Assembly (NCBI GenBank): GCA_045646345.1
Contig: JAZRKN010000015.1
Coordinates: forward strand, 192,001 to 256,000
Direction of reading: 5' to 3'
Source of the DNA: Candidatus Scatovivens sp.
GTDB taxonomy: Bacteria > Bacillota > Clostridia > TANB77 > CAG-508
Length of the DNA: 64,000 nt
Positions 7,725-45,495 of the stretch are shown one piece after another. The translations under genes and the position numbers were made by a program. The notes beneath the pieces were generated by a model. It was not told the DNA's origin and searched no databases. It was given only the letters and a program-made list of their open reading frames with translations. The stretch's first letter is position 1; every line of letters begins with the position of its first letter.

Positions 7725-8735
7725 ATGAAAAAAGTTGGTAATCAAAGTTATATTTTAGAAAGTCCAGTAAACATTGCAACTACTGCAAGTATTGTTGGAC
7801 CTAAAGAAAGATCTGGTCCACTTCATATGTTTTTTGATCAATGTTTAGAAGATGAATTCTGGGGTGAAAAATCTTGGGAATCTGCTGAAAGTAAAATTGT
7901 AAAAGAAACTGTTAATATGGCAATTTCAAAATCAGGAATTGCAGCAAGAGATTTCGATTTTTGTTTTGCAGGAGATCTTTTAAATCAATGCATCGCATCT
8001 TCATTTGGATTAAGAGAAACCAATATTCCGTTTATAGGATTATTTGGTGCATGCTCTACTTTTGTTGAATCTATGATAGTAGCTTCTTCATTTATTGATG
8101 GAGGCTTTGCAACAAATTGTATTTGTGCAGCTTCAAGTCATTTTTGTAGTGCTGAAAAACAGTTTAGGTTTCCTTTAGAACTTGGAAATCAAAGACCACC
8201 ATCTAGTCAATGGACTGTTACTGGTTCTGGATGTTCTATTCTTACCAAACAAGGAACTGGTCCATTTATAACAAGTTTTACCCCAGGCAAAATTGTTGAT
8301 ATGGGAATTAAAGATGCAAACAATATGGGAGCTGCCATGGCTGGTGCTGCCGAAGACACTTTAATTCGTCATTTCAAAGATACTGGCAGAAATCCAAGTT
8401 ATTATGATGCTATTTTTACTGGAGATTTAGGTCATATTGGAAAAGATATATTAATAGATTTAGCAAGTTCAAAAGGTTATAATATTCGTTCAAATTATAA
8501 TGATTGTGGAGTATTAATCTTTGACAAAGACAATCAAGATACACACTCTGGTGGTTCTGGTTGTGGTTGCATTGCTACTGTTTTTTCTGGCTATATTTAT
8601 AAAATGCTTCAAGAACAAAAATTTAAAAAAGTTTTATTAATTGCAACAGGAGCATTAATGAATTCCACAAGTAGTCAACAAGGTGAGTCTATTCCAGGAA
8701 TAGCACATGCTGTTAGTATTGAATTGAAAGGATAA
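7725..8735 (+). CDS. spoVAD: Stage V sporulation protein AD
   Basis: AGDLLNQC, FGACST, AEKQFRFPLE, GGSGCGC, IPGIAHAV. Confidence 0.97.
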   Translation: MKKVGNQSYILESPVNIATTASIVGPKERSGPLHMFFDQCLEDEFWGEKSWESAESKIVKETVNMAISKSGIAARDFDFCFAGDLLNQCIASSFGLRETNIPFIGLFGACSTFVESMIVASSFIDGGFATNCICAASSHFCSAEKQFRFPLELGNQRPPSSQWTVTGSGCSILTKQGTGPFITSFTPGKIVDMGIKDANNMGAAMAGAAEDTLIRHFKDTGRNPSYYDAIFTGDLGHIGKDILIDLASSKGYNIRSNYNDCGVLIFDKDNQDTHSGGSGCGCIATVFSGYIYKMLQEQKFKKVLLIATGALMNSTSSQQGESIPGIAHAVSIELKG

Positions 8736-9109: not shown

Positions 9110-9171
9110 TAAAAAATTTTTTTAGTGTTTTCTTACTCTTTCTAAGAACAAAAAATGTTCGTAAAAAATAC

Positions 9172-9255
9172 CGAACATTTTTTCGAAAAAAGTATTGACA
9201 TTTTATAAATCAATATGTAAAATAAAACAAACAAACATTCGCGAACAAATATTTT
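9172..9255 (+). promoter_or_regulatory. SigA promoter flanked by imperfect LexA (Cheo) boxes
   Basis: TTGACA(9195)-N17-TAAAAT; CGAAC-ATTT-TTTCG (9172), CAAAC-AAAC-ATTCG (9228), CGAAC-AAAT-ATTTT (9242). Confidence 0.6.
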
Positions 9256-9271
9256 GTAGGAGGAAACAAAA

Positions 9272-9946: not shown

Positions 9947-10450
9947 ATGAGTTATTCAATTGAATCAGAAAGACTTCTGCTTCGGCCATTCAAATTAGCA
10001 GATGCAGAAGAATACTTTCAAATGACAAGTGATGCTACAATTAGACACTATATTCCCCACTGCTGGAAAAACACAATTGAAAAAACAAGAGATTTAATCT
10101 CAAAATATTATTTACATGGAGATTTTTCAAGAGACTTTTACATTATAGTCGAAGATAAATTCTCTCATGAAATAATTGGTTCAATTATCGCAGTTGCAAC
10201 AAGAACAAAACCTTTAGACCTTGATATATCATTCATGATAAAAGCAGAAAAACGCAATCAAGGTTATATGTTTGAAGCTCTTGAAGCATTCATGCGGTCT
10301 GTATCCAAACCAGCTTATCTTACCTTTATGATAAAGAAAGATAATGTTGCTTCATTAAAAACAATTGCGAAATTTCCAGTCATAAGAGAATACAAAATCT
10401 CAGGGAAAAATTACGAAAACGAGATATTCTTCGTTATCGAACACAAGTAG
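9947..10450 (+). CDS. GNAT family N-acetyltransferase (RimJ/RimL-like)
   Basis: IESERLLLRPFKLADAEE, RNQGYMFEAL, DNVASLK; GGAGG RBS before ATG 9947. Confidence 0.85.
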   Translation: MSYSIESERLLLRPFKLADAEEYFQMTSDATIRHYIPHCWKNTIEKTRDLISKYYLHGDFSRDFYIIVEDKFSHEIIGSIIAVATRTKPLDLDISFMIKAEKRNQGYMFEALEAFMRSVSKPAYLTFMIKKDNVASLKTIAKFPVIREYKISGKNYENEIFFVIEHK

Positions 10451-10503: not shown

Positions 10504-10537
10504 AAACCCCACTCAAGATATACTTGAGTGGGGTTTG
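10504..10537. terminator. Bidirectional intrinsic terminator
   Basis: AACCCCACTCAAG-ATATA-CTTGAGTGGGGTT between convergent genes. Confidence 0.85.
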
Positions 10538-10553
10538 TTTTTTAAAAATAACA

Positions 10554-11189
10554 TTAATAAAAATTTTCAACAAGGAAAATAAGTTTAATCCAAGGCAAAG
10601 ACACTTTGTAGATTTTTTTATCTGCGATAAACTCTTCAAACTCTTTCTCTAAATAAAATTTTTTGAGTCTAATATCACAGAGACGATTGAAATATACCTG
10701 CAGACGTCTTATGTTCATCATTTTGCTAGTTCTCCAAGAACCGGTATATTTTTTCTTTTTGAGTTTGTAATATTCGTCTGTAGGCTTCATTTTCACTCTT
10801 GCTTTTTGGAAAATGTTTTCCTCTAACAGATCTCCACCTTCCAGATAAATCTGATATGCAGCTACTGGAGCTTCGATATGGTAATTTGAAAGCCATAATT
10901 CATAATCCCAAATAAATTGCCGCAGATCGGCTGGAAAAACTTCCAAATTGGTAAAGAACTTTTCAAGCTTTGCTCTAAAAGCTTTCACTTCTTCAGATTC
11001 TTCTGGAAGCGCTTCTACACTTTCTTCGTATTCAAGGTCTCGTCTCTTATCTCTAATAAGATCACTGATAACTCTTCTTGGAACCTCGTATTCTACAGAA
11101 AGCTTTACCAAATTATCCAGTGCTAATAATACTTCTTCTGGAATATTACTTTCCTTTTCTTTTTCAATATTTACTGATGTCGTTCTCAT
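10554..11189 (-). CDS. Hypothetical protein, paralog of 11303..11938
   Basis: GGAGG RBS, own promoter; shares FR.K.EKFF.N, NYH.EA...AY, NI...A...M motifs with neighbour. Confidence 0.75.
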   Translation of the reverse strand: MRTTSVNIEKEKESNIPEEVLLALDNLVKLSVEYEVPRRVISDLIRDKRRDLEYEESVEALPEESEEVKAFRAKLEKFFTNLEVFPADLRQFIWDYELWLSNYHIEAPVAAYQIYLEGGDLLEENIFQKARVKMKPTDEYYKLKKKKYTGSWRTSKMMNIRRLQVYFNRLCDIRLKKFYLEKEFEEFIADKKIYKVSLPWIKLIFLVENFY

Positions 11190-11267
11190 AATTGTAGTAC
11201 CTCCATATTGAACGCGCTAAGGGTTAAGGGTTAACATAAGAAATTATAACATATATTTAAAAAAACT

Positions 11268-11295
11268 GCAAGAGGCTAGCAATGCTAGCCTCTTG
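11268..11295. terminator. Hairpin between the two paralogs
   Basis: CAAGAGGCTAGC-AAT-GCTAGCCTCTTG. Confidence 0.7.
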
Positions 11296-11302
11296 AGAAA
11301 TA

Positions 11303-11938
11303 TCAAGAATTACAGATTAAATATATCATTTTAAGCCAGACTTCTTCGCTGGCACTATAGTCATAGTCAAACAAGAATCTATTGCAATCTTTATTTAAAT
11401 CTTTATTTGAAAGAAGTAAATCCTTTGTTAAAGCTTCAAAATAGTTTTTCAAACCTTGGATATTTTCTTTTTTACTTGTTAAATGCCATACTTTTTCTTG
11501 CTTACCAACTAAGCGTTTTTTCATATCTATATAGAAATCAGATACTGACATTCTACTTTTTGCGTTATCATAGATATTTGCTATTGTAAGCGGAACATTT
11601 GCTTTAAACAACTTATATGCAGAGCACATAGCTTCTACATGATAATTTGCAAATTCAAATCTATAGTCGTTAAATGCTAAATTTCCGATTGGCAATAAAT
11701 CAGGATTTGAAAAAAACTTTTCTGTTTTTAATCTAAATTCAGAGAATTTATCATCTTTAATTGGGCAAATAGATTTTGATCTCTTATGCTTTTCTCTTGC
11801 AATATCAAGTTCTACTACAAGCTCTTTGTGAGTTATTCCATACTCATAAGCTTTTATTGCTGTTTCCTCAATTAAGATTTGTAATTCTTGTGGTATTGTT
11901 TTTTCCACGATACTTACTGCTGTCACTTTTGTCTTCAT
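11303..11938 (-). CDS. Hypothetical protein, paralog of 10554..11189
   Basis: GGAGG RBS before ATG 11938; sequence similarity to neighbour. Confidence 0.75.
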   Translation of the reverse strand: MKTKVTAVSIVEKTIPQELQILIEETAIKAYEYGITHKELVVELDIAREKHKRSKSICPIKDDKFSEFRLKTEKFFSNPDLLPIGNLAFNDYRFEFANYHVEAMCSAYKLFKANVPLTIANIYDNAKSRMSVSDFYIDMKKRLVGKQEKVWHLTSKKENIQGLKNYFEALTKDLLLSNKDLNKDCNRFLFDYDYSASEEVWLKMIYLICNS

Positions 11939-11971
11939 ATGTCTTTCCTCCGTACAGTGCCATGTAAACAT

Positions 11972-11999
11972 TGTTTACATAATTAATATTCTAACATAC
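11972..11999 (-). other. dif-like Xer site overlapping a promoter
   Basis: GTATGTTAGAA-TATTAA-TTATGTAAACA vs B. subtilis dif ACTTCCTAGAA-TATATA-TTATGTAAACT (20/28). Confidence 0.45.
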
Positions 12000-12059
12000 T
12001 TTTTTTATATTTGCAAATAAAAAAATAACGATACCTTAATCGGTATCGTTATTTGGATT

Positions 12060-14629: not shown

Positions 14630-14658
14630 TTGACCTTTTATGTAAACAGTGCTATAAT
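14630..14658 (+). promoter_or_regulatory. SigA promoter of orphan cassette, near-identical to 51750..51778
   Basis: TTGACC-ttttatgtaaacagtgc(17)-TATAAT. Confidence 0.8.
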
Positions 14659-14783
14659 TATAATAGAAAAAACCTAAATACAACCCAAAAACGATTAATT
14701 GTCGTTTTTCTACATTTAGGAGGATGTAGTTTTTGCATGTACGTATAACATTCACTCTCACACATTTTGAGGAGGATCATATT

Positions 14784-15104
14784 ATGCCTTATTCCCGTAC
14801 CGCTCGTCAGTCCAAGCACGATGTTGGCAGCTGCGTCATCGCCACCCTGCCCAAGATCGACTTCAGCTATGGTTACCTCCGGGAAACCGACAAGAATCCC
14901 AACCGTACGTCATACACGATCGGTCACCTCAAGAGGGATGCTCGTTTGTATCTCCGTAATGGTCAGTCCTTCCAGGAGTTCTCTGACTATGTCAACCGGA
15001 TCTACGTAGGCAACCCCGACTTCATCTGGAACCCCAAAAAGAAGGTTCTGTTCGAAGCCCACATGGAACAGCTCAAACAGGGCTGGCCTGTGAAGTACAT
15101 CTAA
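14784..15104 (+). CDS. Hypothetical protein (GC-rich cassette), paralog of 15773..16084
   Basis: GAGGAGG RBS, strong C-ending codon bias, own promoter and terminator. Confidence 0.8.
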   Translation: MPYSRTARQSKHDVGSCVIATLPKIDFSYGYLRETDKNPNRTSYTIGHLKRDARLYLRNGQSFQEFSDYVNRIYVGNPDFIWNPKKKVLFEAHMEQLKQGWPVKYI

Positions 15105-15116
15105 GCTACACACCTG

Positions 15117-15150
15117 TCTCCCTAGCGTCTTCGTTGGGGAGGCTTTTCTT
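15117..15150 (+). terminator. Intrinsic terminator
   Basis: CTCCCTAGCG-TCTT-CGTTGGGGAG followed by a T-tract. Confidence 0.75.
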
Positions 15151-15209
15151 TATATAAAGACAAAATTGTTAAACTTTTATCTATAATAATTTAATTTCAA
15201 CTCATCTTT

Positions 15210-15238
15210 TTGACATTTTATGTATACCATGTTATAAT
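15210..15238 (+). promoter_or_regulatory. SigA promoter of orphan cassette
   Basis: TTGACA-ttttatgtataccatgt(17)-TATAAT. Confidence 0.85.
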
Positions 15239-15304
15239 ATATTTAAGTAAATATACACCCCGTGGCAACTTAGCCACACGTTTGATGAAAAAGGAGAATG
15301 CAAC

Positions 15305-15577
15305 ATGAAGATTATCGTAAACAACCAGGAAACTGACAACACTGTGTACGGGTTCTTCCCTGAGATTCAGGGCAATTCCGGACGCATCGACATCCACACT
15401 GAGTGGGTCCTCGAAAACGTCACAGAGTACAAGAGGCTCGGGAAATCTCTCGAAGAATGCGATCACGATTTGACCGAAGTTTTAACCAAAGCGGCCGACG
15501 CCGATCTCTTCTTTTGGAGAACCCCTGAAATGGAAGCTGTTTTCCACGAAGACATTGCAAAGCTCTTCGCACAGTAA
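15305..15577 (+). CDS. Hypothetical protein (GC-rich cassette)
   Basis: AAGGAG RBS, C-ending codon bias, own promoter and terminator. Confidence 0.8.
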   Translation: MKIIVNNQETDNTVYGFFPEIQGNSGRIDIHTEWVLENVTEYKRLGKSLEECDHDLTEVLTKAADADLFFWRTPEMEAVFHEDIAKLFAQ

Positions 15578-15597
15578 CCCCTGGTTTAAACCCTTTT

Positions 15598-15632
15598 GCC
15601 CCCGCGAACTTACGCGGGGGGTTTTTCTTTTT
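15598..15632 (+). terminator. Intrinsic terminator
   Basis: CCCCCGCG-AACTTA-CGCGGGGG followed by a T-tract. Confidence 0.85.
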
Positions 15633-15651
15633 AGTTAACATCTTCGTAATT

Positions 15652-15680
15652 TTGACACATTATGTAAAATATAGTATAAT
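15652..15680 (+). promoter_or_regulatory. SigA promoter of orphan cassette
   Basis: TTGACA-cattatgtaaaatatag(17)-TATAAT. Confidence 0.85.
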
Positions 15681-15772
15681 ATATATATGATTAATTATAG
15701 ATAATCAGTAGGTCTATAGACCTAGATGCTCATGGAAAATTGCATAGAAAGATCAAACGAGGTATTAACATC

Positions 15773-16084
15773 ATGGCAAAAAAACTATTCAAAACAGGTG
15801 GAACTGGAATGACAACAGAAAGACACGCAAAAAAAGCTAAGATCAGATACGGCATCTTAGTTACCGACCCTACAAAAGTAGATAAGGACAACCGTGCCGA
15901 CATCAACATCAAGATGATTCACGATCAAGTGAAGATGTCTAGAATGTGCAAACATTCTTCTGAAGATTTCATGCGTGCGATTAAGGATTTAGCGGCTAAC
16001 CCTAATATCATTTGGGACCGCCCTTCTGCACAAGATGAATTCATCCAAACAGCTGAAGCAGTTTGGTTCAGAAGAGCTGCATAA
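15773..16084 (+). CDS. Hypothetical protein (cassette), paralog of 14784..15104
   Basis: GAGGT RBS; shared YG.L...NR...I...S..(E/D)F...NP..IW pattern. Confidence 0.8.
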   Translation: MAKKLFKTGGTGMTTERHAKKAKIRYGILVTDPTKVDKDNRADINIKMIHDQVKMSRMCKHSSEDFMRAIKDLAANPNIIWDRPSAQDEFIQTAEAVWFRRAA

Positions 16085-16190: not shown

Positions 16191-16835
16191 TTAGTACATC
16201 TTCATAACTTTTTCGAAAGAATCAGCTGCACTAGGTGTATTGTTATCGATTTTGTGGTATTCTGCACCTGCTCCGATAAGAATCTCAAGAATTGCAGGAG
16301 TTTGCTCGTTATACTGAGCAAGTCTCTTTCTCACAATTGCTTCTTCATCATCTTCTCTCTTAACAAGAGGAGCACCACAGTCATCGCACACGCCCTCCAC
16401 CTTAGGCGGATTAAACTCGTTAAGAGTATAAGGCTTTTTACATTTACTGCAGATAATTCTGTCTTTTGCTCGCTGTACGACAACATCGTCGTCTACATGA
16501 AGTTCAACAACAGCATCGGGTTTGTGCCCCATTGCCACCATTGCTTTTGCCTGTACATCAGTTCTCGGGAATCCGTTACAAATAACGGTCTTGGTTGCAG
16601 ATTTAAGTTCTTCTGCAACAAGATGAAGGATAATCTCATCAGGGACGAGTCCGCCTTCTTTCATGATACGCTCGATTGTTCCCCAAAGCTGAGGATCGGT
16701 TTCTTTAACCTTTCTGAGCAAATCACTCATTCCCATAACTTGGTACTTGGCATGGTTTTTCTCCATGAATTTGGCTAGCCGTGTGTCTTTACCAGCCCCG
16801 TTCTTTCCAGTCAATACAATTGTATTTACACTCAT
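16191..16835 (-). CDS. adk: Adenylate kinase family (divergent, zinc-lid type)
   Basis: GKNGAGKDT P-loop, GGLVPDE, GFPRT, CSKC...CDDC lid, REDD. Confidence 0.85.
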   Translation of the reverse strand: MSVNTIVLTGKNGAGKDTRLAKFMEKNHAKYQVMGMSDLLRKVKETDPQLWGTIERIMKEGGLVPDEIILHLVAEELKSATKTVICNGFPRTDVQAKAMVAMGHKPDAVVELHVDDDVVVQRAKDRIICSKCKKPYTLNEFNPPKVEGVCDDCGAPLVKREDDEEAIVRKRLAQYNEQTPAILEILIGAGAEYHKIDNNTPSAADSFEKVMKMY

Positions 16836-17056
16836 CTTAAACGCCCTCCTTCTAAAATTGTCTAATGCTTTAATGAGCACTCAAAATTATAACACAATTT
16901 TATGCAAACTTCAACCTAAATCTCTCTATTTATCAACATTTTTTCTTATTTATACTATTTATTTTACTTATTTATTTACAAAAAAATAAAAACCTCAAAT
17001 ATTAAATCAAATTAATACTTAAAGTTTTCATTCTTTATTATTATTTACTTAAAAGA

Positions 17057-19099: not shown

Positions 19100-19242
19100 T
19101 TTTTTATAATTAGCACCTCCAAAAGTACACTTCAAAAAAGACTTCCATCCTATTTTAACACACTTTCAACAATTTTTCAATTATGTAAATCTATTTTAAA
19201 ACAACAAAAAACCCTTTTCAAAAGAAAAGGGCATTTTATATT

Positions 19243-33197: not shown

Positions 33198-33446
33198 TTT
33201 TAAATCCTCCTTAAAATTCATCTACTGTATTCTTCATATAATGTGTACCTCTAATTTCGTTTTTTTCCCTAAAAACAATTCAATTATAGCACATTTTTTA
33301 TCCTTTGTCTACATAAAATTGTAAACTTTTCCGATTTTTGTAATATTTTTGTAATATTTTTTAATCTTTTTGCGCTTATTATCTGCATTTAATCGTTTTT
33401 TCATTATTTGTAAACTACTTTTTTGTTATGTTAATTATACTTATTA

Positions 33447-43598: not shown

Positions 43599-43789
43599 CA
43601 CCATCACCTCTTGTAAATTTACAAATATGCGATTACTCGCACGACACTTGAGTTGCCTAACCATTTTAGCACAGTATTTACATAATATCAACAATTCTCA
43701 TAAAATACTTTAATTTTTTCAATATTTTTCAAGAAAATGCTTGACTTTTAAGGCTATTTGTATTAAAATAACTAAGCATTATATGTAAA

Positions 43790-45260: not shown

Positions 45261-45495
45261 GCTGTTTTTCCTCTTATTTTCTATCTTTGACAAAAATCTG
45301 TTAATACACTTTGTACTTATACAGATTTAACACACTAGTTACAATTATTATTATACAACATTTTCCTTTAAATTTCAATGCTTTCAGTTAAATGTTTACA
45401 TAATTTTCTGTTTAGTATTTATCATAAGCTTGTTTTAATTAATAAAACAAAAACCGAATTGAGCTTTCAATTCGGCTTTTATCTTTTATTTACTT

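Follow-up and report, generated by a model that had tools for sequence, protein, structure and literature searches.

A dif-like stretch in a Clostridia genome is a promoter carrying one copy of a genome-wide XerD-arm motif

The 28 bp at positions 11972-11999 of the window (the whole stretch of 64,000 nucleotides that was analysed, G000:C15:192001-256000) are an ordinary sigma-A promoter carrying one copy of a genome-wide motif, and not a dif site. The earlier, sequence-only reading had built its dif out of a real XerD-type half-site and the -10 box beside it. The motif family to which the half-site belongs is solid and has the traits of an operator: it is enriched in promoters, restricted in its positions there, depleted from genes and conserved while its flanks drift. 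As to what reads it, we lean, without strong conviction, towards the view that XerD would bind single half-sites, repress its own gene and damp acquired genes.

The flagged promoter and its homologues

The genome (G000) measures 1.79 Mb in 19 contigs, with 27% GC and 12% non-coding DNA. The closest relatives of its XerD are labelled Clostridium sp. CAG:508, CAG:273, CAG:567, Ca. Merdicola and Ca. Scatovivens, a grouping that we take to be family CAG-508 of the order TANB77. The flagged stretch is flanked by the terminator of leuS on one side and by two orphan genes in tandem on the other (Table 1; genes and promoters were called with simple purpose-written scripts). These two genes are paralogs (29% identity, E 7e-20), and GC3 of the first is 0.22 versus a genome median of 0.13. 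Pfam gave no family for the orphan protein at E 0.1, a GTDB pattern search returned none and the Atlas had no match; a protein search gave three homologues, and there are two metagenome loci. The model of the gene 1 protein (pLDDT 77) is predicted to be all-helical and has no match in the PDB at E 0.001. From the RNA runs, a small share of which was assembled to contigs, two short contigs span part of the paralog, a coverage that fixes neither its expression level nor its start point. The neighbouring GNAT gene (9947-10450; GC3 0.24-0.30) points toward the orphan pair; compared with loci L011 and L015, it is quite diverged among close relatives, in some of which the motif lies over its -35 box.

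Read on the minus strand, the stretch is indeed GTATGTTAGAA-TATTAA-TTATGTAAACA in an 11-6-11 arrangement, identical at 20 of 28 positions to the B. subtilis dif as printed in PMC3025954. This score is at chance level: 20 or 21 is reached at 18 places in the genome, five of them better than the flagged one, and 12 simulated order-3 Markov genomes contain 20-35 such sites each. The right arm matches the B. subtilis XerD arm at 10 of 11 positions (TTATGT-N-AA). TAGAAT had been correctly recognized as a -10 box, and it is part of a TTGCAA-17-TG-TAGAAT promoter; what was taken for the XerC-side arm of a near-complete dif is thus the extended -10 box itself, and the 6-nt spacing is kept neither in the paralog nor in G239. 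The genome has no second instance of the exact 15-nt core TAGAA-N6-TTATGTAAAC, and the 12 simulations have none (0.038 expected); the reason is that a -10 box here adjoins one of 114 copies of a motif. Among these 114, TAnAA stands before the motif at a 6-nt gap four times, no more often than at gaps of 4, 11 or 13 nt (3, 6 and 4 copies, respectively). The suspicion that this may not be the chromosomal dif was well founded: on either side GC skew stays between -0.18 and -0.25, with no inversion on the 294-kb contig, gene orientation does not flip at the site (129 of 153 long ORFs to the left and 66 of 73 to the right are on the minus strand), and the GC-skew inversion lies on another contig (C3, near 8,336). 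When the genome, its terminus region included, was scanned with the dif of B. subtilis and that of E. coli, no site stood out.

The 19-nt palindrome described over the half-site (11962-11980) is present, but it is not conserved among relatives. Its second arm differs in L306, a 98%-identical locus, and carries T11965C in a contig of run X4; it is respaced in G410 and missing from the paralog and G239. Only one motif copy among the 114 shows such an arm at the palindrome distance. The possibility that the palindrome is an operator in its own right was rejected, as it is unique in the genome up to two mismatches and is not conserved. The copy in the promoter of the paralog (11229-11254), with its 4-nt gap, is there as described, but instead of being decayed it is a full member of the motif family, and the layout of this promoter is the same in G239.

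The comparison took in six homologous promoters, two of them (L306 and L307) being near-copies of the flagged locus and of G410. All six keep the half-site, as TTATGT(A/T)AAC. G410 has TAAAAT as its -10 box, whereas the paralog and G239 have TATAAT; the left arm agrees with dif at 3-6 of 11 positions, and the gap between the arm on the -10 side and the half-site is 6 nt in G410 (19/28 to dif) and 4 nt in the paralog and G239. As regards the disappearance of the match in orthologous promoters, which the sequence-only reading had named as its own check, the right arm persists and the dif geometry is lost. Downstream of leuS, where 6 of 8 loci could be parsed, five relatives have empty alleles and none of these carries the site. 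The promoter-gene-terminator unit that has been gained or lost begins just past the leuS terminator, about 40 nt upstream of the site, and no half-site is found at the far end of the orphan unit; in G445 the same spot holds an unrelated gene whose -35 box closely follows the motif. Since 0/5 empty alleles carry the site and the boundary is at the terminator, the flagged site is not a crossover point. The site does not bound the gene gain or loss seen here, the edge of the unit being the leuS terminator. Nor is the proposed secondary Xer recombination site supported: the spacing is not kept, the closest relative has a broken palindrome and the site does not delimit the unit.

Table 1. Features of the orphan-gene locus, further motif copies in the window and the element at the skew inversion (positions are those of the window unless a contig is named)
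Feature	Position	Strand	Remarks
Orphan gene 1	11303..11938	-	211 aa; no family found; RBS GGAGG at 11947-11951
Orphan gene 2, paralog	10554..11189	-	GC3 0.28
Intrinsic terminator between the two orphan paralogs	11269..11295	-	
Intrinsic terminator of leuS	12023..12054	-	
Bidirectional terminator at the end of the orphan unit	10504..10536	.	
Extended -10 box TG-N-TAGAAT	11988..11999	-	the claimed 'XerC arm'
-35 box TTGCAA	12011..12016	-	17 nt from -10; also in G410, L306, L307
XerD-type half-site TTATGTAAAC	11973..11982	-	5 nt past the -10 hexamer, around the likely transcription start
Second arm of the 19-nt palindrome	11962..11970	+	possibly a weak second half-site; not conserved
Paralog promoter	11230..11248	-	-10 TATAAT (11243-11248), 3 nt, then half-site TTATGTTAAC (11230-11239)
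Motif in -35/-10 spacer of orphan gene promoter	14638..14647	+	gene GC3 0.71
Variant TTATGTATAC in -35/-10 spacer, next orphan gene	15218..15227	+	gene GC3 0.62
Variant TTATGTAAAA in -35/-10 spacer, third orphan gene	15660..15669	+	gene GC3 0.39
Motif 55 nt upstream of a minus-strand gene	19181..19190	+	reverse orientation to the gene, which has no significant Pfam match
Variant TTATGTAGAC over a promoter	33307..33316	-	
Motif in promoter spacer	43676..43685	-	gene GC3 0.40
Motif upstream of promoter	45394..45403	-	gene GC3 0.32
Conserved skew-inversion element	G000:C3 about 7,950-8,070 (L008)		also in G244, G170, G295, G119, G020, G018, G017, G005

Among the genes with further copies in the window, three short orphan genes at 14733-16084, each with a consensus promoter, a spacer motif and a terminator, may be remote paralogs, as judged by eye. 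Next to them, an adenylate-kinase-like gene (16191-16880) has a GC3 of 0.37 versus the genome median of 0.13 and is probably an acquired copy.

The TTATGTHAAY motif and the xerD promoter

TTATGTHAAY occurs in G000 in 101 non-coding copies, the flagged half-site being one of them, and in 13 coding copies. The non-coding number (99 in the intergenic count) compares with 14.6 expected, and the coding number with about 54 expected from synonymous shuffles; the exact form TTATGTAAAC is present 19 times, always in non-coding DNA. The seventh base of the motif is A in 49, C in 29, T in 21 and G in 2 cases, and an alignment of the copies revealed no conserved flanking column outside the 10-mer. A called sigma-A promoter is found at 81 of the 101 non-coding copies, of which 37 lie in the spacer, 19 over the -35 box, 10 immediately upstream of that box, 7 farther upstream and 8 on or past the -10 box, with sharp peaks relative to the -10 box (20 copies at -15/-14 and 22 at -25/-24). 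The copies are distributed over 16 of the 19 contigs. Compositionally foreign genes, taken as those with a GC3 above 0.25, have the motif upstream in 38 of 118 cases versus 53 of 860 for the others (OR 7.2); when only strong promoters are considered and the TTGACA form is dropped, the figures are 25 of 85 high-GC3 genes and 30 of 394 other genes. A phage origin of the promoter layout was considered and rejected, the 16 viral-contig matches being scattered, with no cluster among the matches listed.

The same pattern is found beyond this genome. In 880 kb of G244, which belongs to another genus, there are 33 non-coding copies versus 9.4 expected and 7 coding copies versus 24 expected, that is, a 3.5-fold enrichment and a depletion to 0.29, with a foreign-gene OR of 8.5. 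In 399 kb of G467, from another family of the order, the numbers are 25 versus 5.2 and 5 versus 19 (4.9-fold and 0.26), foreign genes being too few there for an OR. In the closed genomes G244 and G295, copies counted by thirds from the terminus number 24/27/21 and 22/21/14; this is a uniform spread (KS p 0.79 and 0.19), and there is no leading-strand polarity that would fit a ter system. The layout with the motif in the promoter spacer is seen 20 times versus once in the control in G000 and 10 times versus twice in G467, 1 and 4 times in two other members of the family, and near control level in most of 145 Clostridia of other orders, many of which have XerD. Because spacer-type counts differ in this way among genomes, the large set of promoters is peculiar to this lineage and unevenly developed within it. 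Taken alone, raw motif counts over class, genus or family are uninformative, since they blend enrichment in promoters with depletion in genes. Copies were also seen near scpB (upstream, in G244) and rplM (upstream, in G467 and G000), those of G000 being nearer the divergent neighbour.

The motif equals the XerD arm of dif, variable seventh base included; in three dif sequences printed in PMC3025954 that base is T, A and C. The xerD gene of these bacteria (C7:80230-81111 in G000) is linked to spoIIM, has its own promoter and encodes a product above the NCBIfam XerD cut-off. In a set of 29 xerD loci, one of which is cut off, all 28 genera with a located promoter have the half-site at most 40 nt past the -10 box (22 by the strict form), at offsets of 0-20, and a half-site within 300 nt accompanies 2 of 27 xerC-like loci. 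A larger set of 80 loci, partly overlapping the first, gave a half-site in 69 of 78 located promoters against controls of 2/78 and 2.1%, in counts over relatives that ignore kinship. The nine promoters without the half-site include four from a clade that has TTACG instead and four from a clade that has lost the site. Possible co-evolution of XerD and its site was looked at in a quick tree, from which one of the 80 rows was omitted on account of a stop or a faulty frame; each variant group is a single clade there, and XerD has one candidate residue change (position 32) in the TTACG clade and none in the site-loss clade. When orthologues shared by G000, G244 and G467 were compared (49% of G244 and about a third of G467 sampled), xerD was the only one with a site at most 100 nt from the start in all three. 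Outside the order, about 4 of 16 parsed xerD promoters have a copy, 8 of 24 loci having been misparsed and left out.

XerD, the XerC-like proteins and the terminus

XerD keeps the sequence LTRQGFW in 80 of 80 proteins, and this aligns with TRQTFW of E. coli XerD, a helix that reads DNA bases. The catalytic residues R-H-R-H-Y are present in 78 of 80, and the position of the E. coli K172 lysine is occupied by Lys in 1 of 80 (otherwise by T, S, N, V and others). According to the relevant passages of PMC2943603 and PMC5241119, the K172-type lysine is the general acid, mutants in it are inactive, and it is essential in Cre, Flp and Xer. There is a lysine three residues past this position, two before the conserved Arg, in 77 of 80 proteins, and a Lys or Arg one residue before it in 43 of 80; given these other basic residues in the loop, catalysis by XerD may survive. 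Several XerD proteins of other Clostridia keep the loop lysine and others are without it; in the XerC-like proteins the loop is intact. In four XerD proteins of other families (L087, L088, L091 and L097) there is no loop lysine and a Lys replaces the first catalytic Arg, which suggests repeated decay of catalysis. One PDB chain named RaiA (9i5v_14, 401 residues) matches XerD over about 290 residues (E 1.5e-37), and is possibly a fusion or an annotation slip.

G000 encodes XerD, two XerC-like proteins, FtsK/SpoIIIE, SMC and ScpB, and XerD was matched in 197 of 201 genomes of the family. Two of the four genomes without a match, G028 and G032, were sampled over 200 kb each, and an assembly gap is possible in them. 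In G028 there are 8 non-coding copies of the motif versus 2.0 expected and 0 coding copies versus 4.5, and SpoIIM was likewise not found; in G032 the numbers (4 versus 1.8 and 2 versus 4.1) are not significant. The pattern of G028 could reflect an assembly gap, a recent loss of XerD or the existence of another protein that reads the motif.

No canonical dif was detected near the terminus of G000 or of ten relatives. In the supplement of PMC3025954, six Clostridium rows give either no dif prediction or one at 137-175 degrees from the skew shift. What lies 0.3-1.3 kb from the skew maximum is a non-coding element with the core CTTAAAAHCGATTCTCGTG and a conserved upstream block, found there in G000 (C3:8006), G244, G170, G295, G119 and G020. 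It occurs in 149 of 201 family genomes in 1-4 often clustered copies, with one match in the control; it is not in Rfam, which near the terminus recognizes T-box leaders only, and it has no TTATGT arm. Guessing from its position, we regard it as a better candidate for dimer resolution, and a possible target of integration. G295 has two copies, about 14.6 kb from each other, on either side of a second Xer-like gene.

Beside the xerC-like genes (27 loci of +/-1.5 kb) there is no conserved dif, and one shared block only, which to us looks like a LexA-controlled promoter. A similar block is present at 9150-9260 of the window, where the promoter of a YgjP-like metallopeptidase gene has CGAAC/GTTCG repeats that resemble LexA boxes. 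The two XerC-like paralogs of G000 (C3:61-1059 and C4:38404-39405) are 78% identical and located near contig ends close to skew maxima; the relatives searched mostly have one such gene, so that the pair may represent a duplication or a mixture of strains. In G244 the xerC-like gene (C1:910045-911041) is split by a frame change, due to a sequencing error or to its being a pseudogene. In G295 it lies at 538 kb of C1, far from the skew inversion near 6.7 kb; that contig shows a second local skew change, possibly caused by a large inversion or a misassembly.

Explanations and comparison with known systems

How might XerD work at such sites? A XerD monomer would clamp one half-site, and would block RNA polymerase wherever that site lies in the spacer or covers the -35 box or the start point. 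B. subtilis RipX binds either half-site, according to the text of PMC5357621. A half-site past a gene's own -10 box being the usual mark of autorepression, XerD would seem to limit its own synthesis through the site in the xerD promoter, and it may damp genes that arrive with strong stand-alone promoters, such as the orphan pair. Dimer resolution could then be left to a XerC-like recombinase acting at a different element of the terminus. A fuller version of this scheme is more doubtful than the core and we put it forward as tentative: in this family of uncultured gut Clostridia, XerD would have given up dimer resolution together with its catalytic lysine and become an autoregulated global repressor that silences GC-richer acquired genes via half-sites, a lone XerC-like enzyme resolving dimers at a non-canonical terminus element. 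Counting against XerD as the reader are the pattern kept by G028, the loss of the site at xerD in one clade with no corresponding change in the protein, the low spacer-site counts of two family members, and the many XerD-bearing Clostridia without the promoter set. The label 'XerD-only site' of the sequence-only reading holds in so far as the right arm is a copy of the genome-wide XerD-arm motif that also marks the xerD promoter.

The main alternative, which we find unlikely but serious, is that the motif is the operator of another lineage-specific global transcription factor, xerD being one member of its regulon and the likeness to dif a coincidence. Such a regulator would account equally well for the promoter placement, the depletion from coding regions and the foreign-gene bias; it fits the G028 pattern without a XerD match and the weak signal in other Clostridia that have XerD; and G000 encodes two diverged proteins with a Spo0A_C domain. 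However, it needs two coincidences, namely that the 10-mer equals the XerD arm and that xerD is the common target in G000, G244 and G467, and the obvious regulators fit badly: Spo0A is canonical, with a 0A box in its own promoter, the Spo0A_C paralogs are without an upstream motif and CodY was not matched. Spo0A was rejected as the binder on the grounds that the motif differs from the 0A box, whose consensus is TGNCGAA, and that its recognition helix is canonical; the 0A box is separately and weakly enriched in G000 (58 versus 40). CodY was rejected since the genome has no match to it, and the motifs of BirA, WalR, CcpA and PhoP need paired sites, which are absent here. The two Spo0A_C-domain genes (G000:C9:14906-15595 and C16:37346-38020) share a distinctive upstream sequence unlike sigma-A promoters.

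It is less probable still that XerD half-sites serve chromosome organisation through XDS-like unloading or stalling of SMC, their location in promoters reflecting no more than the tolerance of non-coding DNA. SMC and ScpB are encoded, XerD unloads SMC at XDS in B. subtilis and the depletion from coding DNA is strong, but this explanation sits badly with the uniform spread, the sharp promoter positions, the foreign-gene bias and the lack of ter-type polarity. The analogy with SMC unloading that had been suggested for the flagged site is thus a poor fit: the copies are not concentrated at the terminus and occupy fixed places inside promoters, which points to control of transcription. We consider it very improbable that sigma-A itself reads the motif as an extended -35 element (RTTDACATAA) and that the other copies serve reverse or overlapping promoters. 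Its reverse complement does hold TTGACA, TTTACA or TTAACA, and 19 of 101 copies overlap a -35 box; but a good -10 box follows after 16-18 nt in 22 of 100 copies, about the rate for such hexamers (122/817), 37 copies lie in the spacer and 8 at or after the -10 box, the xerD copy slides 0-20 nt past its -10 box, and the link to foreign genes survives the omission of the TTGACA form. We give least credence of all to the idea that the 28 bp are a true secondary dif-like XerC/XerD site that mediated insertion or duplication of the orphan genes. The uniqueness of the exact core, the 6-nt spacing kept in G410 and the presence of Xer proteins and FtsK/SpoIIIE are in its favour, and are offset by the chance level of the 20/28 score, a left arm that varies as -10 boxes do, the 4-nt gap in the paralog and G239, the absence of a skew flip, the five of five empty alleles without the site and the unit boundary at the terminator.

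If XerD is the binder, a housekeeping recombinase would have been turned into a global transcription regulator, a new job for this enzyme, and low-GC Clostridia without H-NS-type proteins would possess a sequence-specific means of taming GC-richer acquired genes. This bears on the role of clostridial XerD and on where such bacteria resolve chromosome dimers. Were another regulator at work, the motif would still mark a large regulon of orphan genes, so far undescribed, in a lineage common in the gut. The case also counsels care when AT-rich genomes are searched for dif.

With the chromosomal dif of B. subtilis or E. coli the flagged stretch shares the right arm, and the 11-6-11 register can be drawn at this copy alone; whereas dif is terminal and single-copy, the flagged site is neither, its left arm is a -10 box and its spacing is not conserved. 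The pdif sites of Acinetobacter are full paired sites that bracket modules beside accessory genes. Here too a dif-like sequence stands beside accessory genes, but it is one half-site in a promoter, with none at the far end or in the empty alleles. The XDS of B. subtilis are dif-like sites of the terminus region that are bound by XerD and unload SMC (Karaboja et al. 2021, as described in PMC11840125, PMC11894783 and PMC13220808). In both cases there is a XerD-type sequence away from dif, without a XerC arm and likely without recombination, in a genome encoding SMC and XerD; going by those descriptions, the difference is between sites of the terminus region and about 100 evenly spread promoter copies, that of xerD itself included, with a bias to foreign genes.

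For XerS/difSL of streptococci, the authors of PMC1914069 speculated that binding of the recombinase beside its own promoter autoregulates the gene. The putative self-regulation is similar here, and one recombinase alone may likewise act at the terminus, but difSL is a full 31-bp, single-copy terminus site, in contrast to a lone half-site that lies past the xerD promoter, far from the terminus, and is repeated at about 100 promoters. Like the xenogeneic silencers H-NS, Lsr2, MvaT and Rok, as the sources describe them, the proposed system would prefer horizontally acquired genes and likely repress them. Those proteins recognize AT-rich DNA loosely and spread along it, whereas here there is one specific 10-bp site per promoter, the foreign genes exceed the host in GC content and the protein proposed belongs to the tyrosine-recombinase family. 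Titles and abstracts of the open-access literature gave no report of XerD as a transcription regulator or silencer of acquired genes, or of the motif in Clostridia. XerD binding away from dif is already known, and the sequence comparisons suggest that what is new here is a family of promoter motifs tied to foreign genes and to xerD.
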